From positions 30,298-94,297 of the forward strand of contig JAYVLO010000029.1 of assembly GCA_043759455.1 (NCBI GenBank): a DNA stretch of 64,000 bases, given 5' to 3'. Shown here in pieces: positions 5,197 to 58,194 of this stretch (position 1 is its first letter; every line of letters begins with the position of its first letter). The notes under the pieces are model-generated. The model was given only the letters and a program-made list of their open reading frames with translations. It ran no database searches and was not told the DNA's origin. Origin of the DNA: Pseudolysobacter sp. Lineage in GTDB: Bacteria > Pseudomonadota > Gammaproteobacteria > Xanthomonadales > Rhodanobacteraceae. Made by a program: the position numbers and the translations under genes.

Positions 5197-5206
5197 GGTG
5201 CTGCTT

Positions 5207-6124: not shown

Positions 6125-6200
6125 GTCTTGCGCTTGATCCGCGGATGATTTCCGCGTGTTATTTTATCGACCTTGATTCAGCCATGCGGATTCGGAAACC

Positions 6201-6758: not shown

Positions 6759-6862
6759 TCAGTATCCAGCTACACCGCTGAGTCCAGTAATTCCGCGGTA
6801 TTCGACAAGTTCAGCCAGTCCCGGCTATAAACCATCCATTGAAGCTTTATTGATGGCGAATC

Positions 6863-8347
6863 GTGTCTGAGGAAATCCTGATCAACGTCACCCCGCGCGA
6901 AACGCGCGTCGCGGTGGTCGAAAACGGCATGCTGCAGGAAATGCATGTCGAACGTGCGCTGAAACGCGGTTATGTCGGCAATGTCTACAAAGGTCGGGTG
7001 TCGCGCGTAATGCCCGGCATGCAGGCGGCGTTTGTCGAAATCGGCCTCGGTCGCGCGGCGTTTTTGCATGCGTCGGATATTTTTCGCGCGCCGACGGCGT
7101 TGCCGGTCGATGGCGCCGAAAACGGTTCGGCGGCGACGCTGGTGCCGCCGATCAACGAGCTGCTGCACGAAGGCCAGGAAGTGGTCGTCCAAGTAGTGAA
7201 AGATCCGATCGGCAGCAAGGGCGCGCGGCTCACGACACACCTGTCGATTCCGTCGCGTTACCTGGTGCTATTGCCGTACAGCAAGGTGCTCGGCGTATCG
7301 GTGCGCATCGAGGACGAAACCGAACGCGCGCGGCTCAAGGAAATGCTCGTCGCGCTCGCGGCCGATGGCGGCATCGGTTACATCGTGCGCACCAATGCCG
7401 AGGGCCAGACCAGCGAAGCACTGGCTGAGGATATCGATTATCTGGGCAAGCTGTGGATCGCCTTGCGCGAGAATATCAAGCGCACCCAGGTCGGTCAGTG
7501 CATCTATGAGGATCTCGCATTGCCGCTGCGCGCGTTGCGCGACCTGATGCGCAAGGATGTAGAGAAAGTACGCGTCGATTCGCACGAAACCTACGACAAG
7601 ACGATTCGTTTCGCGCAGCAGTTCATGCCCGAACTGGTCGATCGTATCGAGCATTATCCGGGCGAGCGCCCGATCTTCGATCTGTACGGCGTCGAGGACG
7701 AAATCCAGCGCGCGTTGAAGAAGGATGTGCCGTTGAAGTCCGGCGGTTATCTGATCATCGACCAGACCGAAGCGATGACCACGGTCGATGTCAATACCGG
7801 CGCGTTTCTCGGTCATCGCAATCTCGAGGAAACCGTCTACAAGACCAATCTCGAAGCGGCGCAATCGACCGCACGACAACTGCGACTGCGCAATCTCGGC
7901 GGCATCATCATCATCGATTTTATCGACATGATCGATGAGGAGCACAAGCGCCAGGTGTTGCGCATGCTCGAAAAATCGCTGCTGCGCGATCACGCCAAAA
8001 CCACCGTGTATGACATCTCGCCGCTCGGCCTGGTCGAGATGACGCGCAAGCGCACCACCGAAAGTCTCGAGCGCCAATTATGCGAACCGTGCCCGACCTG
8101 CAACGGTCGCGGCAGTCTCAAGACTTCGGAAACCGTGACTTACGAAATCTTCCGCGAGATCACGCGCGCGGTGCGCCAGTTCGAAGCCGCCACGCTGCTT
8201 GTGCTGGCCTCGACCAAGGTGGTCAGCAAGATTCTCGAAGAGGAATCCGCTGCGGTCGCCGAGCTCGAGGAATTCATCGGCAAGACGATTCGTTTCCAGC
8301 CCGAAGAAAATTATTCGCAGGAGCAATACGATGTGGTGCTGCTGTAA
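6863..8347 (+). CDS. rng: Ribonuclease G
   Basis: 494 aa; GNVYKGRV.RV.PGMQAAFV (S1), DVNTG, RLRNLGGIIIIDFIDM and GLVEMTRKR motifs. Confidence 0.96.
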   Translation: MSEEILINVTPRETRVAVVENGMLQEMHVERALKRGYVGNVYKGRVSRVMPGMQAAFVEIGLGRAAFLHASDIFRAPTALPVDGAENGSAATLVPPINELLHEGQEVVVQVVKDPIGSKGARLTTHLSIPSRYLVLLPYSKVLGVSVRIEDETERARLKEMLVALAADGGIGYIVRTNAEGQTSEALAEDIDYLGKLWIALRENIKRTQVGQCIYEDLALPLRALRDLMRKDVEKVRVDSHETYDKTIRFAQQFMPELVDRIEHYPGERPIFDLYGVEDEIQRALKKDVPLKSGGYLIIDQTEAMTTVDVNTGAFLGHRNLEETVYKTNLEAAQSTARQLRLRNLGGIIIIDFIDMIDEEHKRQVLRMLEKSLLRDHAKTTVYDISPLGLVEMTRKRTTESLERQLCEPCPTCNGRGSLKTSETVTYEIFREITRAVRQFEAATLLVLASTKVVSKILEEESAAVAELEEFIGKTIRFQPEENYSQEQYDVVLL

Positions 8348-8398
8348 TTTTCGCGGCATCGCGTGTTGCGACAGGATGATCGTGCGAGGAGAACTTCG

Positions 8399-11300
8399 AT
8401 GACGCCGTGGCGTCGCCACTTGCGCCGTCTGCGCCTGTGGCTGGTGCGCTTGTTGGCACTCGCGCTGATCGCGATGGCACTGGTGATGGGGCTCGGCCAG
8501 CTGGCGTTGCCGTGGGTGATCAGCCATCCGGAAAAAATTACCGCGTTTCTCAGCGACAAGCTGCATCGCCCGATCAGCATCGACAAGATCGACGGCACCT
8601 GGGAGCGCAGCGGGCCGGTGCTGTCCCTGCACGGTTTGCATCTCGGCGCCGCCGATGCGAGCCAGCAGGCGATGCTGATTCCGCAGGCCGAAATCGCGCT
8701 GAATTTTTTCGCGTGGCTGCACCAGAATCAACGCTGGAACGAGTTTCGCCTGAGCGGTCTGGATCTGGTTTTGAGCCATGATGCGCCGGATGGTTCGTGG
8801 CGCATCCACGGTTTTGTCGCCGACAACAACGATCAGCAGGACGATGGCGACAATCCATTGTTCCAGCTCGGTTCGCTGGTGCTGCGCGACCTGCATCTGC
8901 GCGTCGATGACACGCCGCATCAACGCCAGTTGCGGCTCGACATTTCGGAGCTGCGCCTGATCAATCAGGGCAGTGCGCATCGTTTGCTTGCACGTGCGCA
9001 ATGCGTCGAAATGCAATCGCCGCCGATGGCGCTCGTGGCCGAATACGATACCTATTCGCGCAACGGCCGGCTTTATCTCGGCGCGACTCAGCTCGATCTC
9101 GCCGGATTGCTGCGGCTGTTTCCGTTGCGTGGTCTGGCGCTCGCGAGTGGCGGCGGCGATGCGCAATTCTGGGTCGACTGGCGTGCCGGTGCGCTCTACG
9201 CGGTGCGTGCCGAAATCGATCTTCGCAAATTGGTATTGCAGACCACCGCGCCGATCGATACCGGCAGCGTCGGCGACATCGTGCCCCGTATCGGTCTCGA
9301 TCGTTTCGCGTTTGGCGCGCGGCTGCAGCGTAATGCTCAGGGTTGGCGTGCCGATGTCGCGGACCTGCGCATGGACCGCGACGGCCAGGCCGGCGTGCCC
9401 GGACGTTTCAGTATCGAGCAGCGTACTGCGCCAGCGCCGCCGATAACGCCGATGTTGCCGGAAGGTCTGCTGTTATCGCCGCTCGACGAAACCGCCGACA
9501 AGATGGTGCTGGCCGCGGCCGACGACAACGGCGCGAGCATGACTAATGCCACCGTCGAATATGTCGGTTCGGCCAGTGATCTCGATTTGAGCGCACTCGC
9601 CAGCTTGTCGATGCTCAGTGACGCGTTGCCGGCCGGTTTGCGGCAGTGGTTGTACAACGCGAGTCCGCACGGTGTCGCGCACAACGTGAGCCTGCGGTAT
9701 CACGATGGCCACGATTACGACGTTGCCGCAAACATCGGCTCTGTCGCATGGATGCCGGTCGGCAAACTTCCGGGCGTGGAAGGTTTGAACTTCGAAGCGC
9801 TGGCCGACGCGCAAGCGCTCAGCATTAGTTTGCCGACGCGCACGCCGTTGCGCTTGCCGATGCCGCAGGTGTTCCGCTCGACCATCGAGCTCGCCGAATT
9901 CAGCGGCAAGGTCGCGGCGTATCGCACCGACAAGGCATGGCGCATCGAAATCCCCGGTATGCGGTTCGAAGGCCAGCCGGTGGCCGGGCTCGGCTACGGC
10001 GGCGAGTTGCGCGGTAGCATTGATCTGAATGTCGACGGCTCGCGGCCGTTCATCGACATGTACGCGGCGATCACGCACGCCGACATGCTGGCGACACATC
10101 CGTTCTGGCCGTACAACAACATGCCGAAGCAGGGCGTGGCGTGGCTTGATCGCGGCCTCGCCGGCGGTCGCTTGAGCGGGCGCGCGGCTTTTCGCGGCAA
10201 CCTCGGCGACTGGCCGTTCCGCAATCAACTCGGCCAGTTCACTGCACACATCGATCTCGACGATGCGATCCTCGACTACAACCCGGAGTGGCCGCGTATC
10301 GAGCATCTGCGAGCGACCGCCGATTTCCTCAACACCAGTCTGCATGTCGTGACGAGCGCGGGCCAGACGCTCGGCAATAAACTGATTAGCGGCAGCGCAG
10401 ACATTTCGGATTTTGCGCACGCCATCATCGAGATCCAGCTCGCGGGCGAAGGCAGCGGCAAGACCCTGCTGGATTTTCTGCATGCCAGCCCGATCGGCAA
10501 ACGTTATGCCGAGCAATTGCGCGGCGTCGGTATTTCCGGCGTCGGCAAACTCGCGCTGCAATTGCATCTGCCGCTCGGCAACGACCAAGGCCCGCTGAAG
10601 CTCGACGGCAGCGTCAACATAAGCGATGCCGATCTGTCGGCTAGCGGACCGAACTTGCGCCTGACCCAGGCCAACGGCAAGGTGGTTTTCAGCGAGCGCG
10701 GTTTCGGCATCGACGACATGGCCGTGCGCTACGAAGATCAGCCTGCACGTTTTGCATTGCGCGTTGGCAGCGCCTACATGCGCGATCCGCAGCATCAGGC
10801 CGAAGCCAGTCTGCACAGCAACTTGCCGGCAGCGATCCTGCTCAAACGCGTGCCGGTATTGTTGCCGTATCAGAAATTCATCGCCGGCAGCGCCGACTGG
10901 ACCGTCGACTACAGCGTCGATGACAACCAAGGCAAGGGCGATTCCGCACAGCGCCTGATCGTCGGCTCCGATTTGAAGGGCGTCGCGATCAGCTTGCCCG
11001 CGCCGATGCACAAGGACAGCAACGAAGTGCAGGCGCTACGTGTGATCGTGCCGCTGCCATTTGAAGGCGGCGATTTGCAGGCGCGGCTCGGCGATATTGC
11101 GCAGATGCGCGCACGGCTGGAGAAAGACACGACACCATTCGCCGGTCATCTCGCTTTTGGCGCCGGTATGCCAGATGCGTTGCCGAAGCGCGGCCTGCGC
11201 GTGAGCGGTGGTGTGGTCGAAGCGGATATCAGCGGCTGGATGGATTTTGTCGTCGGCAACAGTAGCAGCGGCAGCGGCAGTTTTATCGAGAGCGTCGATC

Positions 11301-43178: not shown

Positions 43179-43303
43179 GATGGAAGTTTATCAAACGGGA
43201 GGAGGCACGCATGTAGCCGCCCCGCACGGCATTGCAAAATCTCTCTTTGCAGCAAGACCATTAAAGAACTATATTCAGTCTCTTTATCATGTGGACTAGA
43301 GCC

Positions 43304-43579
43304 ATGCGCTACTCATCTCAAGTCAAGCCGATCAGTTATTTGAAAGCGAACGCGGCCGAAGTTCTGCTTGATCTGGCCGAACGCCGCGAACCACTGGTGA
43401 TTACCCAGAACGGCGAAGCCAAGGCGGTTATCCAGGATATCGCCTCGTATGAGCAGACTCGCGAAACTCTGGCCCTGTTGAAAATTCTCGCACTCGGCAA
43501 TCAGGAAATCGAGGCGGGACGCGTGATGCCTGCGGCAGATGTGATCTCGCGCCTGCGCGCAAAGCGGGCCGTGCGCTGA
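43304..43579 (+). CDS. Type II antitoxin, Phd/YefM family
   Basis: VKPISYLKANAAEVL....REPLVITQNGEAKAVIQD; TGATG overlap with the toxin gene. Confidence 0.9.
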   Translation: MRYSSQVKPISYLKANAAEVLLDLAERREPLVITQNGEAKAVIQDIASYEQTRETLALLKILALGNQEIEAGRVMPAADVISRLRAKRAVR

Positions 43580-43905
43580 TGCGCTACAAGGTGCTGCTGA
43601 CTGCTGGCGCAGAGCGTGACCTTGAGGCAATCCACGACTACATTGCCGAGTACGATTCGCTATCCGCCGCAGACCGCGTGCTGGATCGTTTGGTGAAAGT
43701 GGTGGAGATGCTCGCGACCGTGCCGCAGCGCGGCAGTCATCCGCGAGAATTGCTTGCTCTTGGCATTCACGAATACCGGCAAGTGATATTCAAGCCGTGG
43801 CGTGTGGTTTATCGCGTGATGGGCCGGCAGGTATATGTTTTTTTGATCGCCGACGGGCGCCGTGACTTGCACGGTTTGCTGACCCAGCGCCTGCTCGGCG
43901 CGTGA
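43579..43905 (+). CDS. Type II toxin, RelE/ParE family
   Basis: VLLT..AERDLEAIHDYIA, P.RG..P.EL..LG..EYRQ and WRVVYRV....VYVFLIADGRRD. Confidence 0.9.
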   Translation: MRYKVLLTAGAERDLEAIHDYIAEYDSLSAADRVLDRLVKVVEMLATVPQRGSHPRELLALGIHEYRQVIFKPWRVVYRVMGRQVYVFLIADGRRDLHGLLTQRLLGA

Positions 43906-45608: not shown

Positions 45609-46406
45609 TCACGCCACGCGCTTCAACACCACTTCCAGCACAAACTGGCTGCCGAAAAACGCCAGCAGCAGCAACGCCATGCCCCATAACGTGAGCTGCA
45701 CCGCGCGACGTCCGCGCCAGCCGTAACGCCAGCGTCCCCACAGCAAGGTACCGAATACCAGCCACGCCGCAATCGACAGCACGGTCTTGTGCACGAGGTG
45801 CTGATCGAACAGGTTGTGCACAAACAGGATGCCGCTGAGCAAGGTCAGGCTGAGCAGCACAAAACCCGCGCGTATCAGCTGAAACATCAGCGCTTCGGTC
45901 AAAGTGAGCGGCGGAAGGATGCGCAACAGTCCGCTGAACTGGCGTCGGCGCAACGCGCGCTCCTGTAACGCCAGTCCGATCGCGAGCAATGCCGCAAAAC
46001 ACAAAACGCTATAACCGAGCAGCGCAAAAATCACATGCAGTTTGATTTGCCATTCGATCGGTAGCGGCATGTGCGGCGCGGTCAATGCGGTCAACAGCAG
46101 CAACGCTGCGAGCGGGAACACAATCACGCCAAGTGCCGCCACCGGACGCATCAGATTTACGACCACGCACAACCCGGCGACGCCGACCGCCATGAGTGAT
46201 AACGCAGCAAAAAAATGCAGGTCGAGGCCACCCTCATGCAGAAAATTGCCGAGCACCACGACGATATGCAGCAGTACCGCCGGCCATGCCAGCGCCAGGC
46301 CGAGCAGACGCGGCGGCTGCGCACGACTCAGTAAAGGCAGCGCCAAAACCACTGCGGCGCTGACATACAGAACGGCGGCAAGCCATGAGAGCAGGACAAT
46401 CGACAT
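45609..46406 (-). CDS. ypjD: CcsA-like inner membrane protein YpjD
   Basis: Multi-TM; LHVIFALLGYS, LPPLTLTE..MF, HKTVLSIAAWLVF..LLWGR.RYGWRG and FFGSQFVLE; normally divergent from ffh. Confidence 0.88.
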   Translation of the reverse strand: MSIVLLSWLAAVLYVSAAVVLALPLLSRAQPPRLLGLALAWPAVLLHIVVVLGNFLHEGGLDLHFFAALSLMAVGVAGLCVVVNLMRPVAALGVIVFPLAALLLLTALTAPHMPLPIEWQIKLHVIFALLGYSVLCFAALLAIGLALQERALRRRQFSGLLRILPPLTLTEALMFQLIRAGFVLLSLTLLSGILFVHNLFDQHLVHKTVLSIAAWLVFGTLLWGRWRYGWRGRRAVQLTLWGMALLLLAFFGSQFVLEVVLKRVA

Positions 46407-46646
46407 GCCGCGAAGTGTGGCATACCGCGCGCGCTTCGCAAACGCTCGAGCGTGCTGCGTGTATACAAGGGGCGCGCTATCCTTGCAGCGTCCGGTATCA
46501 GGTTATACATTGCTACCAACGTGCCCGAAGCTTCTCACGCAGGCACTCAAAGATTTTTAGCAGCTGCAAGACAAGACACACAACATACGGGCCAAGCATG
46601 GAAGTCACCATCGCTGCATCTGGATATGGTCTGCGAGCCGAATGAT

Positions 46647-49526
46647 ATGAAGGCTCCCGAAATTAACGTGGCGGCGTTGACCGATTATCACGCCAAGTAC
46701 ATAGCCTACGAACTCACTCGCCGCTTCCCGCCGGGGAGTGCAGAAAAACTGGCAGGCGCCGTCGCCAGTGCACAAGTCGATCTGAATCCGCATCAGGTGG
46801 ATGCTGCGTTGTTCGCGTTCAATTCGCCCCTATCGAAGGGAGCGCTGCTCGCTGATGAGGTGGGCTTGGGCAAGACGATCGAAGCTGGTCTCGTGCTTTC
46901 ACAAAAGTGGGCCGAGAAAAAGCGCCGCATACTTATCATCACTCCATCCAACTTGCGCAAGCAGTGGTTTCAGGAAATGGGCGAAAAGTTTTTTTTGCCC
47001 TGCCGCATTCTTGAGGCAAAGTCCTACAACGCGGCGATCCGGCAAGGCCAGGTCCGTCCTTTTGAAGCACATGAGATTATTCTGTGCTCGTACCAGTTCG
47101 CGCGAAGCAAGGCATCCGATGTGCATGCCATACCGTGGGATCTGGTGGTCATCGACGAAGCGCACAGGCTGCGCAACGTATACAAGCCCGGCAACGTCAT
47201 CGCCAATACGCTCAAACTGGCATTGGCGGATCGGGACAAGTTGCTGCTGACCGCGACGCCGCTACAGAATTCGCTGCTTGAATTGTATGGGCTGGTCAGT
47301 TTCATCGACGAACATATCTTCGGCGATGTCAAAAGCTTCCGCGAGCAATTCGCGAACTTGAGTCAGGCGCAAACGTTCGAGACGCTGAAGGCGCGTCTCA
47401 GGCCGATCTGTCATCGCACCTTGCGCAGACAAGTCGTTGCTTACATCCCATACACCAAGCGTTTGCCGTTGGTCGAAGAATTCACGCCGGAAGAAAGCGA
47501 AGATCGCCTTTACGCATTGGTTTCGGAGTATCTGCAACGCGAAAATCTGCGCGCGCTGCCGGCAAGCCAACGCTCGCTGATGACGCTGGTATTGCGCAAG
47601 TTGCTGGCCTCGTCCACGTTTGCGATTGCTGGTGCCTTGCAATCCATCGCGACACGACTGAAGGCAGAGCTCGCTGCGCAGAGTCCGGTCATAACGCTGA
47701 CTGAAGATCTCGATCGTGACTACGAGGCGCTCGACGAAACCGCCGAAGAGTGGTCGGACGATAAAAGCGTCGAGCCACTGAGCGAGCAAGACCGAAAAGC
47801 CATTGCCGGTGAGATTGTCGAGCTCGAAGCGTTCGCCACGCTGGCCTCATCCATCAGCGCCAACGCCAAGGGCGCTGCGTTATTGAAAGCACTCACGGTT
47901 GCTTTCGCCAGAACGCGGGAATTGGGTGCGGAAGAAAAAGCCATCATCTTCACCGAGTCCCGCCGCACGCAGGATTACCTGCTACGCGTATTGGCCGACA
48001 GCCCGTTCAAGGACGGCATCGTGTTGTTCAACGGTTCCAACACCGACGAGCGCTCCAGGAAAATATATACCGAGTGGTTGCAGCGCCACGAGGGCAGCGA
48101 CCGTATCACCGGTTCTCGCAGCGCCGACATGCGCTCGGCGCTCGTCGAATATTTTCGCGATTGCGGTCGCATCATGATCGCCACCGAAGCTGGCGCCGAA
48201 GGCATCAACCTGCAGTTCTGTTCGCTGGTGGTCAATTACGACCTGCCGTGGAATCCTCAGCGCATCGAGCAGCGCATTGGGCGCTGCCATCGTTATGGAC
48301 AAAAGCACGATGTCGTCGTGGTCAATTTCCTCAACCGCAAGAATGCCGCCGATCAACGTGTGTTCGAGTTGCTGTCGGAAAAATTCCATTTATTCGAAGG
48401 CGTTTTTGGTGCCAGCGACGAAGTGCTGGGCGCGATTGAATCCGGTGTGGATTTCGAGAAGCGCATCGCCGCGATCTACCAAGGCTGCCGCAAGCAAGAG
48501 GAGATCAAGTCGGCCTTCGACCAGCTCCAGCTCGAACTGAGCCTGGAGATCGACGAATCCATGACACGCACCCGACAGAAACTGCTTGAACACTTCGACG
48601 ACGAAGTGCGCGAGAAATTGAAAGTGCGCAAGACGGCCTCCGAGGAACAACTCGGGCGCTACGATCATTTGCTGATGCAGCTCACCCGGCACGAATTGCA
48701 CGGACATGCCGATTTTTTCGGTGACGCAGGCTTTCGCCTGAATACATCGCCTTTCCCGGGACGTGAAACTGACATTCCATGTGGGCTGTACGAGTTGCCG
48801 CGCCGCACTGGCGACGCGCACCTGTATCGACTCAACCATCCATTGGCCGAAGCGCTCGTCGATCGGGCCAAGGCGCGCGAACTGCCGTCGGCAGAAATCC
48901 ATTTTGACTACAGCCAACATGTTGGCAAGGTTAGCTCGCTCGAGCCCCTGATCGGCAAATCGGGTCAGCTTGCCGTGTCGCTGTTCAGTGTGGAATCCCT
49001 CGATCAGGGTGAAGACCATTTGATTGTTGCGGCCACCACCGATGATGGCCGGGCCTTGGATTATGAAACTGCTCGCCGGATGCTCACGTTGCCCGGCAGC
49101 ATTTCCCGTCAAGGTGTATCAGTCGATGAGACGGCGCTGAGTCAGATTGCAGCCGAACAACGGACTCTTATCCAACGCAATATCTCAGAGCGCAACGCAC
49201 AGTTTTTCGAAGCTGAGGCGAACAAGCTCGACGGCTGGGCTGATGATCTCAAGTTGGGTCTGGAGCGCGAGATCAAGGAGCTGGATAGGCAGATCAGGGA
49301 AGTGCGGCGCGCGGCCACTGTTGCCCTGAGTCTGGATGACAAGCTGGTTATGCAGAAGCAGATCAAAAGTCTGGAAGGGCAGAGAAACCAAAAACGACGC
49401 TCGTTGTTTGATGCCCAGGATCAGGTTGATGCGCAGCGTGATACGTTGATCGCGCACATCGAAGGCAAACTGCAACAATATTCGCGAAGTGAAGCCTTGT
49501 TCAGCGCACGATGGAATGTCCTATGA
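46647..49526 (+). CDS. SNF2/RapA-like superfamily 2 helicase
   Basis: LNPHQ (Q motif), LADEVGLGKT, VIDEAH, TATP, and TEAGAEGINLQ..VVNYDLPWNPQRIEQRIGRCHRYGQ; coiled-coil-like C-terminus. Start is uncertain (46647-46677). Confidence 0.9.
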   Translation: MKAPEINVAALTDYHAKYIAYELTRRFPPGSAEKLAGAVASAQVDLNPHQVDAALFAFNSPLSKGALLADEVGLGKTIEAGLVLSQKWAEKKRRILIITPSNLRKQWFQEMGEKFFLPCRILEAKSYNAAIRQGQVRPFEAHEIILCSYQFARSKASDVHAIPWDLVVIDEAHRLRNVYKPGNVIANTLKLALADRDKLLLTATPLQNSLLELYGLVSFIDEHIFGDVKSFREQFANLSQAQTFETLKARLRPICHRTLRRQVVAYIPYTKRLPLVEEFTPEESEDRLYALVSEYLQRENLRALPASQRSLMTLVLRKLLASSTFAIAGALQSIATRLKAELAAQSPVITLTEDLDRDYEALDETAEEWSDDKSVEPLSEQDRKAIAGEIVELEAFATLASSISANAKGAALLKALTVAFARTRELGAEEKAIIFTESRRTQDYLLRVLADSPFKDGIVLFNGSNTDERSRKIYTEWLQRHEGSDRITGSRSADMRSALVEYFRDCGRIMIATEAGAEGINLQFCSLVVNYDLPWNPQRIEQRIGRCHRYGQKHDVVVVNFLNRKNAADQRVFELLSEKFHLFEGVFGASDEVLGAIESGVDFEKRIAAIYQGCRKQEEIKSAFDQLQLELSLEIDESMTRTRQKLLEHFDDEVREKLKVRKTASEEQLGRYDHLLMQLTRHELHGHADFFGDAGFRLNTSPFPGRETDIPCGLYELPRRTGDAHLYRLNHPLAEALVDRAKARELPSAEIHFDYSQHVGKVSSLEPLIGKSGQLAVSLFSVESLDQGEDHLIVAATTDDGRALDYETARRMLTLPGSISRQGVSVDETALSQIAAEQRTLIQRNISERNAQFFEAEANKLDGWADDLKLGLEREIKELDRQIREVRRAATVALSLDDKLVMQKQIKSLEGQRNQKRRSLFDAQDQVDAQRDTLIAHIEGKLQQYSRSEALFSARWNVL

Positions 49527-49695
49527 ATCTCTCAACAAGCAATAGCAATTTTAGGCTATGTAATATTGTCTGCAGTGAATTCTTGGCCGCCCTTATTCCG
49601 CAATTTGGCTATCTACTGCGCGCAGCGCGTACACCGCTGCAGTTTAGAACCATGAAGCAACGTGCCTTTAGTAGCGATTATCCAGGGGAATCCGT

Positions 49696-51153
49696 GTGAC
49701 CAAGCACTGGATTTCCTTCGCAGTAGAGTTACTAAAATCAAGTCTGGCGCCAATTCCGCATGAGACAAATGAACTGGATTGGAAAGCGGGGCTTTCTCCA
49801 AATCGTGAGCGTCTCGTCGAACATCTAATAGCCTTTGCCAACCTTCCAGGTGGTGGCTATCTTGTCTTCGGCATTGATAATGCTGACGCGCATCTTATCG
49901 GCGTTACGCAAGAGGATGTCGCGGCAATCATAGGCACCGTTGCCAATCTCGGGCGCGATGCACTGCAGCCGCCGCTCGCAGTCGATCATGGCGTCGTCGA
50001 GTTGGAGGGAGTGGCGCTGTTATGTGTGCATGTCCCGGAGCACAAGAATCGACCAGTACACCGACGTGGCAAATCCATCGAGGAGTGTTGGGTTCGCTCA
50101 GGTGGCACTACCCGTAAAGCGTCGCGGCAGGAAGTGGCGGGTCTGATGCTCGGCAGTCCACCTCCGCGTTGGGAAGAGTTGCGGGCATCCGCCGTATTGG
50201 ATGCTGAGGCCACGATCGCCTCTTTGGACTTGGCAAGCGTCGCCAAATTGCGCGAACGGCCCTTGCCCGACGATCAGCCAGCGCTGCTGCGTTGGTTGGC
50301 CGACGAAAAGATGATCACTTTTGAGGGCAGCGGATATTGCATCACGCACTTCGGCGCGATAGCAGCTGCGCGCCGACTCGAACAGTTCGATAGCCTCGCG
50401 CGCAAGCGGGTTCGGGTGATCCGCTATCGCGGCAGCAACAAAGTGGACACGATCGATGAACTGGTCGGTCAGCGTGGTTATGCGGTGGGATTCGAGGGGC
50501 TCATAGGTCATCTCAAACGCAGCCTTCCACATAGCGAGGTCATACAGAAGGCACTCCGCGTCGAGGTTAGCGTCTACCCCGAGATCGCACTGCGTGAACT
50601 GATCGCAAATACATTGATTCATCAGGATTTCAGTGTCACTGGCGCCGGGCCGATGATCGAGATTTTCGACGACCGCATCGAGTTCACCAACCCAGGCGCG
50701 TTGCTGCCGACCAAGCAGGTCGATCGCTTGATCGGGACGACACCGGAGTCGCGCAACGAAGTGTTGGCCTCGGCGTTCCGGCTATATCGGATTTGCGAGG
50801 AGCGCGGCACCGGCTTTCAGAAGGTCGTTGCCGCCATCGAATTGTTTGGTCTGCCGCCGGTTGCATTTGCAGTCCTCGACGGTGCATTTCGGGTAACGTT
50901 GTATGCGCCACGCAAGTTCACCGACATGGGCAAGACGGAGCGGATTGAGGCTTGCTACCAGCATGCCGTGCTGCGCTACCTGTCTGGTACCGCCTTGACG
51001 AACACGTCGCTGCGCGAGCGGTTGAAGCTCAGCGAAAAGCAACGCAATCTGGTCACCAACCTGATTGCCGATGCCGTCCATGCTGGACGCGTCAAACGCA
51101 AGGATCCGGACTCGGGCAACAAGTTCGCTGAATACCTCCCGTACTGGACATGA
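49696..51153 (+). CDS. Schlafen/AlbA_2 domain + HATPase_c_4 (RecG-C-like) + probable wHTH protein
   Basis: ETNELDWK...IAFAN..GGYLVFGIDN (AlbA_2) and YPEIALRELIANTLIHQDF....PMIEIFDDRIEFTNPG..RNEVLA..F....CEERGTG (HATPase_c_4). Confidence 0.85.
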   Translation: MTKHWISFAVELLKSSLAPIPHETNELDWKAGLSPNRERLVEHLIAFANLPGGGYLVFGIDNADAHLIGVTQEDVAAIIGTVANLGRDALQPPLAVDHGVVELEGVALLCVHVPEHKNRPVHRRGKSIEECWVRSGGTTRKASRQEVAGLMLGSPPPRWEELRASAVLDAEATIASLDLASVAKLRERPLPDDQPALLRWLADEKMITFEGSGYCITHFGAIAAARRLEQFDSLARKRVRVIRYRGSNKVDTIDELVGQRGYAVGFEGLIGHLKRSLPHSEVIQKALRVEVSVYPEIALRELIANTLIHQDFSVTGAGPMIEIFDDRIEFTNPGALLPTKQVDRLIGTTPESRNEVLASAFRLYRICEERGTGFQKVVAAIELFGLPPVAFAVLDGAFRVTLYAPRKFTDMGKTERIEACYQHAVLRYLSGTALTNTSLRERLKLSEKQRNLVTNLIADAVHAGRVKRKDPDSGNKFAEYLPYWT

Positions 51154-51214
51154 TGTTTGTATCACACGCGAAACCGGACAGAGCTGTAAATATCAATATA
51201 AACAATAATTTGCC

Positions 51215-52948
51215 ATGACTTATCGAAAACAAAAACTTGAACTCACCTGGATTGGCAAGGAGACGCGACCGAAGCTGGAGCCGCGGATTCTGCTGGAGGA
51301 CAAGGCCAAGAGTTATCACGCGAAGCATCGTGTCGGTGAGAATGATCTGTTCGACAATCGCTTGATCTTTGGCGACAACCTGCTGGCGTTGAAGGCGCTG
51401 GAGCAGGAGTTTGCGGGTAAAGTGAAGTGCGCGTACGTTGATCCGCCTTTCAATACTGGCGAAATGTTCGATCACTACGAAGACGGTATTGAGCATTCGA
51501 TATGGCTTTCGCAGATCCGGCACCGATTCGAGATTATCAATCACCTACTTGCTGAAGACGGAACTCTTTTCGTTCATATCGATGACAACGAGCTGGGTTA
51601 TCTCATCGTTCTACTTGACGAGATTTTCGGGCGACCTAATCGTCTCTACATCACGACGTTCAAGCAAGGGTCGGCGACTGGTCACAAGTCAATCAATCCG
51701 GGATGTGTGAGTACGACTAATTAAATACTGATTTATGCGAAAAGGAAATCTGCATGGAAGCCTAATCGTGTTTTTACCGGACGTGATCGAGACAAACGAT
51801 ATGGTCAGTTCATAGTCAATCGAAATGAGCTGTGTGAACAATGGCGGATAATTACACTAACGAAGGCATTCGCTATTTACATTAACGAGGATGAAAAATC
51901 TGCCCGAAAAATATTAAAAGGCGATCCGGGTGTGCTTGAGGAATTCGTTTTGGCAAATGCTCGAAGTGTTATCCGTACCGCGAGGCCAGATTACGATAGC
52001 GTCAGCGAGGCCGCGAGAGCGATGATTGATGAATCGAAGCGTGCGTCAGAAGCCATCTTGAGATTGGAGCGTGCGAATCATTCAGATATGTATTTCAAAG
52101 GAGGGGAGCGCATTCTCTTCTATGCTGACAAGCTAAAGATGGTGGATGGGAAGTTTGTGGCGGGAGAGCCGCTGACCACGCTATGGGACGATATTTTATC
52201 TAACAACCTGCATAACGAAGGTGGCGTTCAATTTCCGAAAGGAAAAAAGCCAGAGGCGTTGATAAAAAGATGTTTTGATCTAACAACAAACCCGGGCGAT
52301 CTAGTACTCGACTCCTTCGCCGGCTCCGGCACGACCGGCGCGGTCGCCCACAAAATGGGGCGGCGCTGGATCATGGTCGAGCTCGGCGAGCACATCCACA
52401 CACACATCATTCCGCGCTTGCAGAAAGTCATCGACGGTGATGACAAGGGCGGCATTACCGAGGCGGTAGGCTGGACGGGCGGCGGCGGATTTCGTTATTA
52501 CCGTCTAGCGCCGTCACTGCTGGAAAAAGACCGTTGGGATAACTGGGTCATCCACCGCGACTACAACGCGGCAATGCTGGCCGAGGCGCTGTGCAAGCTG
52601 GAAGGCTTCACCTATGCGCCCAGCGACACGGTGTATTGGCAACAGGGCTATTCCACCGAGCGCGACTTTTTATATGTCACCACGGCTACACTGAGCCATG
52701 AGCAACTGCAGCAACTCGCTGACGAAGTGGGCAGTGAACGCACTTTGCTGGTGCTGTGCCCGGCGTTTCGCGGCAAAGGCGATTATTCCAACCTGACCGT
52801 GCGCAAGATTCCGAAGCAGGTATTGTCGCGCTGCGAATGGGGCCACGATGATTATTCGTTGCAGGTTGAAAATCTGCCGCAAGCACCCGAGCCACCAGTC
52901 AAGGCGAATGTGCAGTCCAGCTTGTTTGGCGAGGATGTTGAGGCATGA
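51215..52948 (+). pseudogene. mod: Type III R-M methyltransferase Mod (beta-class N6-adenine) interrupted by one in-frame TAA at 51722-51724
   Basis: LIFGDNLLALKAL, YVDPPFNTG (motif IV), STTN*ILIYAK, GKKPEALIKR and VLDSFAGSGTTGAVA (motif I). Both ORF-track pieces (51215 and 51932) are in the same frame. Confidence 0.85.
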
Positions 52949-54018
52949 GCACGGACGGCAACGATACGCTGCCGACTTCCGAGTTGATCCTGTATCGCAC
53001 CGAGGATGCACGAATGCGCATCGAGGTGCAGTTGGAAGGCGGAACGGTTTGGCTGACCCAGGCGCAGATGGCCGAGTTGTTTCAGACCACGCCGCAGAAC
53101 ATCACCTTGCATCTCAAGGCGATTTATCAGGAAGGCGAACTACTGCAGGAGGCAACCTGTAAGGATTACTTACAAGTTCGATCCGAAGGCGGGCGCGCGG
53201 TACAGCGCAGCCTCAAGTATTACAACCTTGATGCGATTCTGGCGGTGGGTTATCGCGTGCGTTCTGCGCGCGGCACGCAGTTCCGCCAATGGGCGACCGA
53301 GCGCTTGAAAGAGTTCCTGGTCAAGGGTTTCACACTGGATGACGAGCGTCTGAAGCGGGGGCCGGACGATGGCTACTTTGAAGAGTTGTTGTCGCGCATT
53401 CGCGATATTCGTTCTTCGGAACGCATGTTCTGGCGCAAGGTGCTGGACATCTATGCCACCAGCGTGGACTACGACGCCAGTGCAGAAGCCAGCCAGCGTT
53501 TTTTCAAGACCATGCAGAACAAGATGCATTGGGCGGCGCATGGTCATACTGCGGCCGAAGTTATCAAGACGCGCGCCGATGCGGCCAAGCCGCATATGGG
53601 CATGACGAGTTGGAGCGCCGCAAAGCCGCGCAAGATGGATGCGGGCATCGCCAAGAATTACCTGGTTGCCGAAGAGCTCGATGCGCTCAATCGTATCGTT
53701 AGCGCTTATCTCGAATTTGCCGAGGTGCAGGCGCTCAATCGGCGCGCGATGACGATGACGAACTGGATAACGAAGCTCGATGATTTTCTGCGGTTGAGTG
53801 AGCGAGAAGTGCTTGCGCACGCGGGTCGCATCAGTCACGAATCGGCAATCGCCTACGCGGAAGCGCAATTCGATCTTTACCGTCAGCAACAATCAAAAGA
53901 GATCACAACGGTAGAACGTGACTTCGATGCGGTGACAAAAACGCTCAAGCGCATGAAGGGCGAAAAGCCAAACTCGATTCGAAAAAAAGCGGATAAAAAA
54001 ACAGGGAGCAAGGAATGA
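52945..54018 (+). CDS. rhuM: Virulence RhuM family protein
   Basis: TVWLTQAQMAELF, YYNLDAILAVGYRVRS.RGTQFRQWAT.RLKEFLVKGF.LDDERLK, QNKMHWA and AKNYL motifs. Confidence 0.9.
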   Translation: MSTDGNDTLPTSELILYRTEDARMRIEVQLEGGTVWLTQAQMAELFQTTPQNITLHLKAIYQEGELLQEATCKDYLQVRSEGGRAVQRSLKYYNLDAILAVGYRVRSARGTQFRQWATERLKEFLVKGFTLDDERLKRGPDDGYFEELLSRIRDIRSSERMFWRKVLDIYATSVDYDASAEASQRFFKTMQNKMHWAAHGHTAAEVIKTRADAAKPHMGMTSWSAAKPRKMDAGIAKNYLVAEELDALNRIVSAYLEFAEVQALNRRAMTMTNWITKLDDFLRLSEREVLAHAGRISHESAIAYAEAQFDLYRQQQSKEITTVERDFDAVTKTLKRMKGEKPNSIRKKADKKTGSKE

Positions 54019-56699
54019 ATCGACACGTCAACGCCATCGCCGGCAGGTTGAGTTTGCGTCCGCCACAAAGGCACTCGCTGGAGCTGCTGGATCGCATTAC
54101 CGAAATCGTGCCGCCCAGAAAAAGCACTGATTCCGCGGCTGCGCTGGACGTGATCCGCAGCGAATTTCCTTCCGTCACCGATTTCGAGCGCGAGTTTCCA
54201 TCGTTGTGTTTTGCATTGGCAACTGGCGTCGGAAAAACGCGCTTGATGGGCGCCTTTGTGACGTATCTGCACCTGGCGCACGGCATCAATAATTTTTTCG
54301 TGCTGGCGCCCAACTTGACCATCTACAACAAGTTGATTGCGGACTTCACACCGAACACGCCGAAGTATGTGTTTAAGGGTATTGCGGAATTTGCCATCAA
54401 TGCGCCGTCGATCATCACTGGCGACAATTACGACCAGCATGATCCGGTCAGCGGTAGTCTGTTTGGTGGTGTGCGTATCAATATCTTCAATATTTCGAAG
54501 ATCAACTCCGAGGTGCGTGGTGGTCGCAGCCCACGTATCAAGCGACTTTCGGAATACATCGGCGAGAGTTATTTTGCTTACCTTGCCGGGTTGCCCGATC
54601 TCGTACTGCTAATGGACGAATCGCATCGTTATCGTGCCAGCGCCGGCTTGCGTGCGATCAATGAACTCAAGCCTGTGCTTGGGCTTGAGCTCACAGCAAC
54701 GCCGTATGTAGAAACCAGCAAAGGCGCGATTGCCTTCCGAAATGTAATTTTTCACTACCCGCTTGCTCAAGCGATGGCCGATGGTTTCGTCAAGGAACCC
54801 GCCGTGGTTACGCGCAAGGATTTCAATCCTGCCGCGATGTCGGTCGAGGAGCTGGAGTTGCTGAAGCTAGAAGATGGCGTGCGTTTGCACGAGAGCGTGA
54901 AAGTCGATCTGGAAACTTACGCGCGCGAAACCAACAATACGATCATCAAGCCTTTCGTGCTGGTGATTGCACGCGACACCACGCATGCCGCGCAATTGCT
55001 CCAGTTGATCCAGTCCAGTGCGTTTTTTGACGGGCGTTATCAGGGCAAGGCGATTCAGGTTGACTCCAGCCGAAGCGGTGTCGAAGAAGAGGAAATGATC
55101 GAACGGCTATTGCGCGTTGAGCATAGCGATGAACCGACCGAAATCGTCATCCATGTGAATATGCTCAAGGAAGGTTGGGATGTGACCAACCTCTATACCA
55201 TCGTGCCATTGCGCGCGGCCAACGCACGTATTCTCATCGAACAATCGATCGGGCGCGGTTTGCGTCTGCCGTATGGCAAACGTACCGGCGTTAGTTCAGT
55301 GGATCGGCTGAATATCATCGCGCACGACAAATTCCAGGAAATTGTTGACGAGGCGAATAAGCCAAGCTCATCAATCCGTATGGCGTCCATCCTGCTCGAC
55401 GAAACTACGTTGGTAAACCGAACGGTAACGGTGGTGTCGCAACCAAGAGTAACTACCGCGCTTGGATTTCAGCCGGCACAAATGACGGCGAACACGACAC
55501 TTGCCGGGGCGGATAACGCGAAATTATTTGCTGATCCCCAAGAGCAGCGATTGGCGCAGATTGCATACGACGTAATTTGTAGCCTGGGAAATCAGCCGCA
55601 AAACGTACCGACGATCGAACACCTGAAGCGACCGGAAATACAGGCTGCGATCGTCAAAGCAGTGGAAGAGCGTCAACTAGCAGTGCAGGCTGAGCTAGAT
55701 GGCTGCGGAGAAAAGCCGGATATCGCCGGCGTGGTAGCGAAAACAGTCGAGCTCTTGACGCTGCAAAGCATCGATATTCCACGCATTCTTGTGGTGCCGA
55801 AAGGTGAGGTGAAGTCGGGCTTCATGCCTTTCGTTTTAATGCTGGATTCGTTGAAATACCCTCCCGTATCGGAGGAAATCTGGGTGCGATATCTTCGCAC
55901 TGGCGAAAGCCTGACCATCAATCCTGTGCGCGGTCACGCCGAGGAGCCGAGGCTTGAAAACTATATCGTACGTGGCCTTATCGATTGCGACGATATTTCC
56001 TACGATGTGCACGCGGACCTGCTATATGACCTGGCATCTCAGGTCGTCAGACATTTCGCGAGCTATCTGAAAATCGATGAGGTTTGCGATGTCTTGCGTT
56101 GTCATCATCGTGATATCGCAAAGTTCGTACACGCTCAAATGCAGGAGCATTATTGGGAAGAATCAGTAGGAACCGAGACGAGGGTAAGCAAAGGATTCAC
56201 CGAGCTGAAGGCGAGCGCTTACACCTACGCCGTGAAAGAGCCGCCAATGGATTACCGCGTTGCGCCGATGGATAAAAGCAACATGGCGAAATATGTTTTC
56301 GGCGGGTTCCAGCGTTGTCTTTATCCTTTGCAAAAATTTGCCTCGGACGCGGAGCGCAAGGTGGCGGTGATTCTGGAGCGTGATGCGATCAAATGGTTCA
56401 AGCCGGCGAAAGGGCAGTTCCAGATTTTCTACAAGCAAGGTGCCGACCATCTTGAATATCAGCCTGATTTCGTGGCTGAAACATCAGATTTCATTTACAT
56501 GCTGGAGCCCAAGGCACGCAACGAAATGGATGCTGTGGATGTGCTGGCAAAAGAAGAATCGGCGATTGAGTGGTGCGCCAAGGCATCGGAATACTCCCTA
56601 GAAAATAACGGGAAACCATGGAGATATGTTCTGATTCCCCACGACGAGATCGCTGAAAATATAACGTTATCAGGACTGGCGAATCGATTTTCGAAGTGA
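54015..56699 (+). CDS. res: Type III R-M restriction subunit Res (SF2 helicase + PD-(D/E)XK nuclease)
   Basis: LATGVGKT, MDESHRY, LTATP, VNMLKEGWDV and EQSIGRGLR; C-terminal YQPDFVAET...MLEPK. Confidence 0.88.
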   Translation: MNRHVNAIAGRLSLRPPQRHSLELLDRITEIVPPRKSTDSAAALDVIRSEFPSVTDFEREFPSLCFALATGVGKTRLMGAFVTYLHLAHGINNFFVLAPNLTIYNKLIADFTPNTPKYVFKGIAEFAINAPSIITGDNYDQHDPVSGSLFGGVRINIFNISKINSEVRGGRSPRIKRLSEYIGESYFAYLAGLPDLVLLMDESHRYRASAGLRAINELKPVLGLELTATPYVETSKGAIAFRNVIFHYPLAQAMADGFVKEPAVVTRKDFNPAAMSVEELELLKLEDGVRLHESVKVDLETYARETNNTIIKPFVLVIARDTTHAAQLLQLIQSSAFFDGRYQGKAIQVDSSRSGVEEEEMIERLLRVEHSDEPTEIVIHVNMLKEGWDVTNLYTIVPLRAANARILIEQSIGRGLRLPYGKRTGVSSVDRLNIIAHDKFQEIVDEANKPSSSIRMASILLDETTLVNRTVTVVSQPRVTTALGFQPAQMTANTTLAGADNAKLFADPQEQRLAQIAYDVICSLGNQPQNVPTIEHLKRPEIQAAIVKAVEERQLAVQAELDGCGEKPDIAGVVAKTVELLTLQSIDIPRILVVPKGEVKSGFMPFVLMLDSLKYPPVSEEIWVRYLRTGESLTINPVRGHAEEPRLENYIVRGLIDCDDISYDVHADLLYDLASQVVRHFASYLKIDEVCDVLRCHHRDIAKFVHAQMQEHYWEESVGTETRVSKGFTELKASAYTYAVKEPPMDYRVAPMDKSNMAKYVFGGFQRCLYPLQKFASDAERKVAVILERDAIKWFKPAKGQFQIFYKQGADHLEYQPDFVAETSDFIYMLEPKARNEMDAVDVLAKEESAIEWCAKASEYSLENNGKPWRYVLIPHDEIAENITLSGLANRFSK

Positions 56700-56817
56700 C
56701 CGGTCGTTTTCAGTCACGCAATATCTCCTTAGCCGCAGGATAAGTTTCTCGCGGGCCAGCAACGAGCGCGGCTGCTATACTGCGCGCCTTCGTTTTTTCT
56801 GCCGTTAGAGTCAAGCC

Positions 56818-58194
56818 ATGTTCGAGTCACTCAGCCAACGCCTGTCCGGCACCATCGAGCGCTTGCGCGGTCGTGCGCGCCTGACCGAAGAAAATATTCG
56901 CGAATCACTGCGCGACGTGCGCATCGCCTTGCTCGAAGCCGATGTCGCGTTGCCGGTGGTGCAGGCGCTGATCCAGCGCGTGAAGGTTCGCGCGGTCGGC
57001 CAGGATGTCTTGAAAAGCCTGACGCCGGGGCAGGCGCTGGTCAAGGTCGTGCGCGACGAACTCACCGCAGTGATGGGTTCGGTGAATACCGATCTGAATC
57101 TGAATTGTCCCGCGCCGGCGGTGGTGCTGATGGCCGGACTGCAGGGGGCCGGCAAGACCACGACGGTGGCGAAACTTGCGCGTTTCCTGCGCGAGCGCAA
57201 GAAGAAAAAAGTCATGGTGGTGAGTTGCGACGTGTATCGTCCCGCCGCTATCGAGCAATTGCAGACGCTGGCTGAACAGGTCGAGGTTTTGTTTTTCCCA
57301 TCGACCGGCGAGCAGGATCCCGTAGCGATTGCGCACGCTGCGATCGATGCGGCGCGCAAGCAATACGTCGATGTATTGCTGATCGATACCGCGGGCCGTC
57401 TCGCGATCGATGCGGCGATGATGGCCGAGATCAAGGCGCTGCACGCTGCGGTCAATCCGATCGAAACATTGTTTGTCGTCGATGCGATGACCGGCCAGGA
57501 TGCGGCGAATACTGCCAAGGCATTCAGCGAAGCGTTGCCTTTGACCGGCGTGATCCTGACCAAGACGGATGGCGATGCGCGCGGTGGCGCGGCGTTGTCG
57601 GTGCGCTATATCACGGGTCGCCCGATCAAGTTCATCGGCTCGGGCGAGAAACCCGATGCGCTGGAACCGTTCCATCCTGATCGTCTCGCGCAACGCATTC
57701 TCGGCATGGGCGATGTGCTGTCGCTGGTCGAGCAGGTCGAGCAGAACGTCGACAAAGAAAAAGCGCAGAAGCTTGCCGAGAAGATCGTCAAGGGCAAGCG
57801 CTTCGACATGAACGATATGCGCGATCAACTGCAGCAGATGCTCAGCATGGGCGGGCTCGCCAGCTTGATGGACAAACTGCCGGGCGTGAGCAATCTGCCG
57901 GATCAGGTCAAGTCGCGCATCAACGACAAGGAAGTGCATCGCATGATCGCGGTCATCAACTCGATGACCAAGAAAGAACGCCGCCATCCCGATCTGCTCA
58001 ACGGCTCGCGCAAGGTGCGGGTTGCCAAGGGCTCGGGCATGCAGCCGCAGGACGTCAACAAGCTGCTCAAGCAATATCAGCAGATGGAAAAAATGATGTC
58101 GAAGCTGTCGTCGGGCGGCATCAAGGGTCTGATGCGACAGATGAAGGGCGCGATGGGCGGCGGCGGGGCAGGCGGCAACTTCATGCAACGTTGA
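56818..58194 (+). CDS. ffh: Signal recognition particle protein
   Basis: GLQGAGKTTT, DTAGR, TKTDGDARGG and Met-rich M domain; TATACT -10-like hexamer at 56776. Confidence 0.97.
   Translation: MFESLSQRLSGTIERLRGRARLTEENIRESLRDVRIALLEADVALPVVQALIQRVKVRAVGQDVLKSLTPGQALVKVVRDELTAVMGSVNTDLNLNCPAPAVVLMAGLQGAGKTTTVAKLARFLRERKKKKVMVVSCDVYRPAAIEQLQTLAEQVEVLFFPSTGEQDPVAIAHAAIDAARKQYVDVLLIDTAGRLAIDAAMMAEIKALHAAVNPIETLFVVDAMTGQDAANTAKAFSEALPLTGVILTKTDGDARGGAALSVRYITGRPIKFIGSGEKPDALEPFHPDRLAQRILGMGDVLSLVEQVEQNVDKEKAQKLAEKIVKGKRFDMNDMRDQLQQMLSMGGLASLMDKLPGVSNLPDQVKSRINDKEVHRMIAVINSMTKKERRHPDLLNGSRKVRVAKGSGMQPQDVNKLLKQYQQMEKMMSKLSSGGIKGLMRQMKGAMGGGGAGGNFMQR

Follow-up and report, generated by a model that had tools for sequence, protein, structure and literature searches.

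A conserved SNF2-Mod-Res operon frame with slots for interchangeable defence genes, found in a defence islet of Pseudolysobacter sp.

Background

In a 64,000-nucleotide stretch of the genome of Pseudolysobacter sp. (assembly GCA_043759455.1, contig JAYVLO010000029.1, positions 30,298 to 94,297; the whole stretch is referred to as the window), five genes on the + strand at 46647-56699 encode an SNF2 ATPase, an AlbA_2/HATPase_c_4 protein, a Type III methyltransferase (Mod), a RhuM family protein, and a Type III restriction protein (Res), as identified from open reading frame (ORF) calls, Pfam, and PADLOC. These genes are an example of a conserved operon frame, which consists of SNF2, a major variable slot, a Type III Mod, a minor slot, and a Type III Res. 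The three frame proteins are co-inherited over many phyla, and the AlbA_2/HATPase_c_4 and RhuM genes that fill the two slots here are interchangeable defence cargo.

Canonical Type III restriction-modification (R-M) systems consist of two genes, for Mod and Res. The Mod-Res enzyme methylates an asymmetric site and cleaves unmethylated DNA after an ATP-triggered movement of Res, and Res depends on Mod for target recognition. In the classical enzymes the site is hemimethylated, and cleavage takes ATP and a pair of unmethylated sites in inverse orientation. What, then, is an SNF2 ATPase gene doing at the head of such an operon? Is it a part of the restriction enzyme, or does it serve the genes that are embedded behind it? 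A preliminary description of this DNA had proposed that SNF2, Mod, and Res form a three-component unit, accompanied by exchangeable cargo genes, and had stated that no characterised role for SNF2 was known in this arrangement. Here we investigate the five genes in comparison with related loci and with known defence systems.

Results

Linkage of SNF2 with mod and res

At least 587 relatives of the window's SNF2 are present in species-representative genomes, and the best 80 of these (54-78% identical, full length) were used as loci. They come from the Proteobacteria, Verrucomicrobia, Acidobacteria, Planctomycetes, Nitrospirota, Chloroflexi, Bacteroidetes, Firmicutes, Actinobacteria, and Spirochaetes. 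Where at least 9 kb follow SNF2, both mod and res are found downstream of it on the same strand in 49 of 52 loci, and the remaining 3 carry one of the two. This is a clearly positive outcome for the linkage that the preliminary description had put forward as the test of its proposal. Of the 64 loci that extend 3 kb or more beyond SNF2, no more than 3 (L017, L048, and L073) show neither gene, and each of these ends 3-9 kb past SNF2. No conserved gene was found upstream of SNF2 or downstream of Res when the related loci were compared.

SNF2 and mod are separated by a median of 2.6 kb, and by more than 1 kb in 45 of 56 loci. Between mod and res the median is 105 bp, with more than 600 bp in 15 of the 56. 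The pairwise distances of the SNF2 and Res proteins co-vary (Mantel r=0.90, p<=5e-4) and their mean distances, 0.38 and 0.40, are similar. Mod gives lower correlations (0.41-0.46), owing to the swapping of its central specificity region.

The same association is seen when Res is the starting point. Of 28 metagenome loci that were anchored on Res and extend 8 kb or more upstream of it, 20 contain SNF2; co-oriented cargo reaches the edge of the contig in 3, and opposite-strand genes occupy the expected place of SNF2 in 5. In a sample of 400 genomes drawn evenly from the window's class, Res is present in 22, including the window's own genome, and a family-level SNF2 accompanies it in 15 of the other 21. 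Nine of those 15 genomes have SNF2 upstream and co-oriented on the contig that carries Res, including one pair that is 44-45% identical to the window's.

A second variant of the frame pairs the same SNF2 family with a larger and different Mod and Res (PDLC03646/PDLC03654). It was found in 5 loci, and is also present on E. coli and Klebsiella IncF plasmids and in E. coli chromosomes. On the chromosome of E. coli AR_0069 (L169, 9500-18899) and on an E. coli IncF plasmid (L167, 11995-21515), SNF2 adjoins a Mod of about 1035 residues and a Res of about 1125 residues in a cargo-free arrangement.

About 5% of complete E. coli genomes contain an SNF2 relative, with mod and res behind SNF2 in all three of the chromosomal contexts examined (3/3). 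Related copies are also carried by IncF plasmids, which are conjugative, in Salmonella, Klebsiella, and E. coli. One E. coli record, labelled as a 1.0-Mb plasmid (CP061233.1, L168), has a decayed island between yicC and dinD, in which a helix-turn-helix (HTH) gene is followed by SNF2, GmrSD, Mod, and Res. This record carries the core chromosomal genes coaBC, slmA, pyrE, rph, gmk, and rpoZ, and looks like a chromosome fragment that has been filed as a plasmid.

A small HTH gene overlaps the start of SNF2 in an operon subclade that includes the Salmonella, E. coli, and Klebsiella IncF plasmid copies. It is located at 6232-6432 in L166, 11763-12008 in L167, and 9554-9754 in L171, and lies just upstream of SNF2 in L029, L061, L069, L075, L077, and L078. 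The encoded protein is of the excisionase or Xre type (one copy is named MAD1 by PGAP) and looks like a controller protein. An upstream regulator of this kind was sought in the window, where the 86-aa ORF at 46385-46645 is not HTH-like.

Cargo of the two slots

Between SNF2 and mod there are zero to five variable defence genes, and between mod and res there are sometimes one or two. SNF2 abuts mod directly, without cargo, in 9 of 56 loci. In the 80 genome loci the cargo includes AIPR/AbiU-like genes (18), SMC-like ATPases (12), DUF2130 genes (8), AlbA_2/HATPase_c_4 genes (7), and RhuM (5). Further cargo genes encode a Ppl-like ATPase, Septu PtuAB, GmrSD/HEC-06, YhcG/PDC-S02, AbiEi, DUF3800, a Multi_ubiq-domain protein, and IetAS. 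A HEC-01A-like ATPase is also found in the slots, followed in one locus by a DUF4276 protein. The slot of L061 (Zoogloea oryzae NBRC 102407) holds an AAA-ATPase gene and then a 782-aa gene, a pair that may be IetAS, with further genes before Mod and Res. In L046 (Prosthecobacter fluviatilis KACC 12649), where Mod has the window's specificity type, the order is SNF2-AIPR-Mod-RhuM-Res. Besides AlbA_2 and RhuM there are more than 15 cargo families, which are mutually unrelated between loci and are mostly known or candidate defence genes. A DUF4391 partner was sought among ten ORFs that directly follow SNF2 in related loci; all ten are cargo of diverse kinds without a DUF4391 among them, and the products of the window's island have none.

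Homologues of the window's AlbA_2/HATPase_c_4 gene occupy its slot, slot 1, in L001, L011, L073, L074, L111, and L153, and the slot between mod and res in L037 and L072. RhuM is matched at any position in 15 of 80 Res-anchored metagenome loci, and is found between mod and res in several of the genome loci. Because the loci show this pattern of embedded defence genes, the AlbA_2 and RhuM genes of the window are cargo, and the earlier proposal that they are exchangeable agrees with their distribution.

In L048, a Multi_ubiq-domain gene and three further co-oriented genes (5194-9000) are present where mod and res would be expected within reach. This gene set may be a ubiquitin-like conjugation defence cassette.

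The frame SNF2 and IetH

The ietHAS system consists of the ATPase IetA, the S8 protease IetS, and IetH, a DrmD-like SNF2 helicase (Liu et al., Nucleic Acids Res 2026, PMC13069673). Substitutions in the Walker A motif (K65A) and in the DEAH motif (D165A) of IetH abolish defence against T7, and mutant ietH renders the system toxic (PMC13069673). That paper treats the helicase, IetA, and IetS as the system; a methyltransferase and a Res go unmentioned.

In E. coli 042 the gene order is SNF2, IetA, IetS, methyltransferase, DEAD/DEAH helicase. The middle genes match PADLOC IetA and IetS, and the match of the last gene to REase_III PDLC03648 spans the entire model. Residue 65 of this strain's SNF2 is the Walker lysine and the aspartate of DEAH falls near residue 165, in agreement with the published K65A and D165A. 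Full-length identity to the window's proteins is 44% for SNF2 and 45% for Res. Based on residue numbering, gene order, and species, IetH is very probably the frame SNF2 of the SNF2-Mod-Res operon family. If this is the case then the IetH results are the only experimental data on a frame SNF2, and they show an active ATPase that is important for the embedded cargo. The preliminary statement that no characterised role for SNF2 was known in this arrangement needs amending in that the probable E. coli orthologue has been published, as IetH, and is needed for an embedded cargo.

The E. coli 042 operon (L170, 9514-20275) is in an island at tRNA-Phe. Its SNF2 carries a frameshift and its mod is in two pieces, while both IetAS and Res have stayed intact, which makes this operon a further example of live cargo within a decayed frame.

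The SNF2 protein

The first gene had been described as a SNF2/RapA-like ATPase of about 960 residues with intact GLGKT, DEAH, and QRIGR motifs. The protein has 959 residues, and the three motifs (at 73-77, 170-173, and 542-546) are invariant in an alignment of 38 sequences. Its best PADLOC match is DrmD PDLC02619 with 679 bits, while the HmaA model gives 173 bits. With the NCBIfam models the scores are 685 bits for DISARM_DrmD_b NF038318 (cut-off 950) and 254 bits for NF038317 (cut-off 610); the canonical DrmD model aligns along the entire length of the protein. RapA is the best solved relative, both by sequence (E ~1e-50) and by fold.

The C-terminal 295 residues are predicted to form an alpha+beta domain with a protruding coiled-coil hairpin of about 115 residues (pLDDT 90). 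The model of this domain has no fold match in the PDB with an E value below 0.07. Neither Pfam nor the structure model revealed a nuclease domain in SNF2 itself. Relatives of SNF2 number in the thousands, and the closest 120 are 76-85% identical and belong to several gamma- and betaproteobacterial genera. Several full-length homologues are labelled 'adenine-specific DNA-methyltransferase' by JGI even though only helicase domains are present. This label has probably been carried over from the adjoining mod.

Mod, its stop codon, and Res

The two halves of the window's mod match opposite ends of PADLOC MTase_III PDLC03636, with 234 and 378 bits. PF01555 is covered at profile positions 1-82 by the N-terminal half and at 133-218 by the C-terminal half. 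The motifs occur in the order DPPF, FAGSGTTG, so that motif IV is ahead of motif I. In the alignment the ends of Mod are conserved and residues at about 150-350 are variable, as is typical for a target-recognition domain. The best solved relative of an intact Mod orthologue is EcoP15I Mod.

A single TAA interrupts the mod frame, as had been seen earlier. It falls within the motif N-[FYH]-(I/V)-L-x-Y-(A/S)-K, in place of a conserved aromatic or histidine residue. This residue is F in the closest relatives, which share the window's specificity type, while the others have Y or H. The exact truncated Mod product, together with 4-6.5 kb of identical DNA, is present in an ENA metagenome assembly and in the Logan assembly of SRR23617291. 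With the same stop in two further assemblies, the TAA is not the artefact of one assembler. There are 4-nt overlaps between mod and rhuM and between rhuM and res.

Elsewhere, mod is split at differing positions in L021, L031, L165, G061, and E. coli 042 (L170), and res is intact in L021, L031, L165, and L170, as it is in the window. Inactivation of mod thus appears to be recurrent across independent loci. Since Res needs Mod to find DNA, the stop in mod most likely silences methylation and restriction together without damage to the host, by analogy with known Type III enzymes. The window copy is most likely an inactive frame, in which the SNF2, cargo, and res genes are still intact.

Res matches PADLOC REase_III PDLC03648 with 709 bits. 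In 27 sequences its helicase motifs (GVGKT 71-75, DESH 201-204, TATP 227-230, and QxxGRGLR 410-417) are invariant, as is the nuclease motif PD 817-818...E831-x-K833. The best sequence match in the PDB is EcoP15I Res, which is distant (E=1.4e-5). In the PADLOC check, which the preliminary description had suggested, mod and res are filed as Type III genes and RhuM as PDC-S05, and SNF2 is closest to DrmD.

The island and its genomic setting

The five genes lie in an inserted island in the intergenic region between ypjD and ffh (Table 1). In a same-genus genome (G401, locus L174) these two genes are direct divergent neighbours with about 130 bp between them. The flank alignment to this genome ends at about 46445 and resumes at about 56752, with 94% identity in ypjD and 98% in ffh. 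The GC content is 0.48-0.57 within the island and about 0.60 around it, and the island's SNF2 gene was not found in 4 same-genus and 14 same-family genomes (18 searched). The empty site in a relative, the lower GC content, and the lack of SNF2 in 18 relatives together indicate recent horizontal acquisition, and the island is a recently, horizontally acquired defence islet. No integrase, transposase, or other mobility gene was found in the island, and there is no tRNA in the window.

Table 1. Features of the island, its five genes, and the flanking host genes
Feature	Position	Strand	Description	Basis
Inserted island	46446..56751	.	~10.3 kb, in ypjD-ffh intergenic region
ypjD	45609..46406	-	ypjD/ccsA-like cytochrome c assembly gene; left flank, host core	Pfam Cytochrom_C_asm
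SNF2	46647..49526	+	DrmD/RapA-like SNF2 ATPase, 959 aa; first frame gene	Pfam SNF2-rel_dom and Helicase_C
AlbA_2/HATPase_c_4	49696..51153	+	AlbA_2 (Schlafen-type, SLFN_AlbA_2) and HATPase_c_4; slot 1 cargo	Pfam
mod	51215..52948	+	Type III mod, beta-class N6/N4 methyltransferase; pseudogene	PF01555, PADLOC MTase_III PDLC03636
TAA stop in mod	51722..51724	+	In-frame; sole stop in the mod frame
rhuM	52945..54018	+	RhuM family; slot 2 cargo, PADLOC candidate PDC-S05	PF13310, 372 bits
res	54015..56699	+	Type III res, superfamily 2 (SF2) ATPase with C-terminal PD-(D/E)xK nuclease; intact	ResIII, PADLOC REase_III PDLC03648
ffh (SRP54)	56818..58194	+	Right flank, host core	Pfam SRP54 domains

A 58-aa ORF at 49523-49699, which has 4-nt overlaps with the SNF2 stop and the AlbA_2 start and is called in other assemblies, is without a homologue in the loci that were retrieved and is unlikely to be a gene. 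Further upstream of ypjD are dnaB, alr, a Phd/ParE pair, and radA, and downstream of ffh are rimM and trmD. The pair, a Phd/YefM antitoxin and a ParE toxin (43289-43905), is outside the island, between an unannotated ORF after alr and radA.

Discussion

On balance we think it probable that SNF2, Mod, and Res make up a frame with slots, in which SNF2 is auxiliary to Mod-Res on the same DNA and communicates with the slot genes. The genomic statements contained in this reading are near certain. In intact copies, by analogy with studied Type III enzymes, the Mod-Res complex would methylate an asymmetric site and would cleave unmethylated invader DNA upon ATP-triggered movement of Res. SNF2 may act as an active translocase of double-stranded DNA on the same molecule as Mod-Res. 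Whether as an auxiliary third subunit or as a close partner, it might clear or remodel DNA that is bound by protein or otherwise inaccessible. Communication with the slot genes is hinted at by IetH, the Walker A and DEAH motifs of which are needed for IetAS defence and which keeps IetAS non-toxic.

One alternative is that SNF2 works purely for restriction. It would then be an integral third subunit of a distinct Type III-like class, with the cargo hitch-hiking in a recombination-prone gap, and would load Mod-Res or supply active translocation or a collision partner, so that single-site or same-orientation targets, which Type III enzymes normally spare, get cut. The fixed order with SNF2 first, the near-equal divergence of SNF2 and Res with r=0.90, the 9 loci in which SNF2 abuts mod, and the pairing of the same SNF2 family with a second Mod/Res family are all consistent with this. 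So is the recurrence of a RapA-like SNF2 motor encoded beside a methylase in DISARM class 1, BREX type 3, and ARMADA, where armA is required for ARMADA II defence. However, Mod-Res pairs persist without SNF2. In addition, IetH is needed for IetAS defence in the absence of Mod-Res and its ATPase-dead form makes the cargo toxic, neither of which is predicted if the cargo is a bystander. We consider this explanation rather unlikely.

SNF2 could instead be a hub or guard for the cargo, sensing invader DNA or the anti-restriction factors of an attacking phage and checking or licensing abortive-infection cargo in the slots, with Mod-Res as the first line of defence and the cargo as back-up. The IetH data, taken together with the E. 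coli 042 operon, point this way. The gap of more than 1 kb that most loci have between SNF2 and mod leaves room for cargo directly after SNF2, and the identified cargo is mostly of the ATPase, nuclease, or toxin type among defence or candidate genes. Yet the cargo families are structurally unrelated, which makes a common physical interface with SNF2 hard to picture, and nine loci carry no cargo at all. IetAS, Septu, GmrSD, and RhuM work or occur elsewhere without SNF2, and cargo is retained in L083, L111, and L140, which have no SNF2. This explanation is somewhat more doubtful than the one before it.

That SNF2 works on its own, as a single-gene factor of defence or repair, and adjoins Type III R-M only through the clustering of defence genes might be suggested by the Mod-Res pairs without SNF2 and by single-protein SNF2-type defences such as HmaA (Hma: Payne et al. 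2021), but is very improbable given that order, strand, and position are alike in 49/52 loci from more than 10 phyla with surroundings that all differ, that SNF2 and Res distances co-vary, that at most 3/64 loci are without mod and res and all of these end soon after SNF2, and that SNF2 has no nuclease domain of its own.

Several observations weigh against the auxiliary role that we favour for SNF2. The partnership of SNF2 with Mod-Res is known here from genomic data, not from experiment, and the SNF2-Res correlation is possibly inflated by shared vertical descent within clades. The closed genome G012 has a closely related Mod-Res and no SNF2 anywhere in the genome, and about 5 metagenome loci, including L083, L094, L111, and L140, have Mod-Res without SNF2. 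Overall, roughly 10-20% of these Mod-Res pairs are without SNF2, which indicates that restriction and modification are probably workable without it. IetH was matched to the family by residue numbering, gene order, and species, not by accession, and the IetH result comes from a construct without Mod-Res and concerns a single cargo. Finally, the system in the window genome is probably non-functional, so its activity is not readable there.

The SNF2-less pairs among close relatives suggest that SNF2 is an addition to Mod-Res and is not indispensable for its survival. The three-component unit that had been proposed thus gains support from the linkage and from the co-variation with Res, but SNF2 is not an obligatory member of it. 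L083, L111, and L140 retain a DUF2130 cargo gene, which in SNF2-bearing loci is usually directly after SNF2. This retained cargo suggests a secondary loss of SNF2 in these three loci.

More tentatively, and with less than an even chance of being right, SNF2-Mod-Res may be a general frame-plus-cargo chassis, in which the DrmD-like SNF2 translocase inspects DNA alongside the Type III enzyme and, through its activity state, either releases or holds back the abortive-infection module that the slot contains. This is a speculative and, for the present, unlikely extension of the auxiliary role. If true, it would be a guard-type coupling of restriction with a back-up defence, in which dozens of unrelated defence genes (among them IetAS, Septu, GmrSD, AIPR, RhuM, and AlbA_2) share one upstream sensor.

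Why does the arrangement matter? Type III enzymes are textbook two-gene systems, and a lineage that nearly always has an SNF2 motor suggests an unstudied form of long-range DNA communication or access. The principle of 'guilt by embedding' is extended to Type III, and both slots can be mined for new defence genes. The IetH link would recast the published three-gene ietHAS as a fragment of a larger operon and would give an experimental entry point in E. coli. With copies on IncF plasmids and SNF2 relatives in about one in twenty complete E. coli genomes, the arrangement bears on how susceptible well-studied bacteria are to phages and on the traffic of plasmids in them.

Comparison with known defence systems

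The closest likeness is to Type III R-M (EcoP15I/EcoP1I, Mod2Res). The window has a beta-class Mod with a variable target-recognition region and an SF2/PD-(D/E)xK Res, with mod before res on the same strand in one operon, and PADLOC files both proteins as Type III. Unlike these systems, the frame has a conserved SNF2 of 950 aa at its head and two slots for defence genes, and the window's Res is only distantly related to EcoP15I Res.

With ietHAS (Liu-DS4) the window shares an SNF2 that is presumably the IetH orthologue, the E. coli 042 operon having the order SNF2-[cargo]-Mod-Res. The cargo differs, being AlbA_2/HATPase_c_4 and RhuM in the window; neither IetA nor IetS is among the island products, so the islet is not itself an ietHAS system.

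DISARM class 1 (DrmD, DrmMI, DrmA, DrmB, DrmC) also has an SNF2 gene adjoining an adenine-type methylase in a defence locus based on methylation, and the window's SNF2 is most similar to DrmD models. In the window, however, the methylase is a Type III Mod rather than PglX-like, the effector is Res, and the SNF2 scores fall below the NCBIfam DrmD cut-offs. No DrmA/DrmB (DUF1998) domain is present in the six island products. Nor does PF09369 (DUF1998) match anywhere in the genome, which is 94% complete, while control genomes match. For the DrmC PLD nuclease, no PLD domain is present in the six island products, a genome-wide search not having been made.

ARMADA I/II and BREX type 3 resemble the window in having a RapA/BrxHII-like SNF2 with a methylase gene in a defence locus. 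The islet differs in the class of its methylase and is without the YprA/DUF1998 helicase-nuclease, the UvrD-like ArmD, PglZ, and BrxC. For ARMADA, no ArmC YprA-family helicase-nuclease/DUF1998 is found in the island and DUF1998 is lacking genome-wide. For BREX, neither PglZ nor BrxC is among the island products (here too a genome-wide search was not made). The absence of the DISARM and BREX markers from the island agrees with what the preliminary description had reported.

Hma combines an SNF2 helicase and a methylase with a third gene of the ATPase type, defence genes in the same orientation are embedded among the three, and its cargo is similar (Septu, GmrSD/HEC-06, and HEC-01-type ATPases). 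HmaB is an m5C (5-methylcytosine) methylase, though, and HmaC is an ATPase without the architecture of Res. The HmaA model fits the window's SNF2 far less well than DrmD does (173 against 679 bits), and no HmaB or HmaC is among the PADLOC matches listed for Mod and Res (for the C-terminal half of Mod, the best 25 of 53). As for MADS, the mad6-mad8 kinase/ATPase/nuclease core was not found. The only gene to which PGAP gives a MADS name, MAD1, is the small HTH gene ahead of some SNF2 homologues, and this gene is also missing in the window. With their defining partner genes missing, the islet is not DISARM, ARMADA, BREX, Hma, or MADS.

The study of embedded defence genes by Payne et al. (bioRxiv 2024, 10.1101/2024.01.29.577857) dealt with Hma, BREX, DISARM, and Type I R-M, and did not include Type III. 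No publication was found in which SNF2-Mod-Res is named or tested as a unit; the literature coverage was incomplete, and this is absence of evidence only. All of the part types were known already, as was the principle of embedding. What appears to be new here is the SNF2-Mod-Res frame as a unit and its link, very probable as judged above, to IetH.

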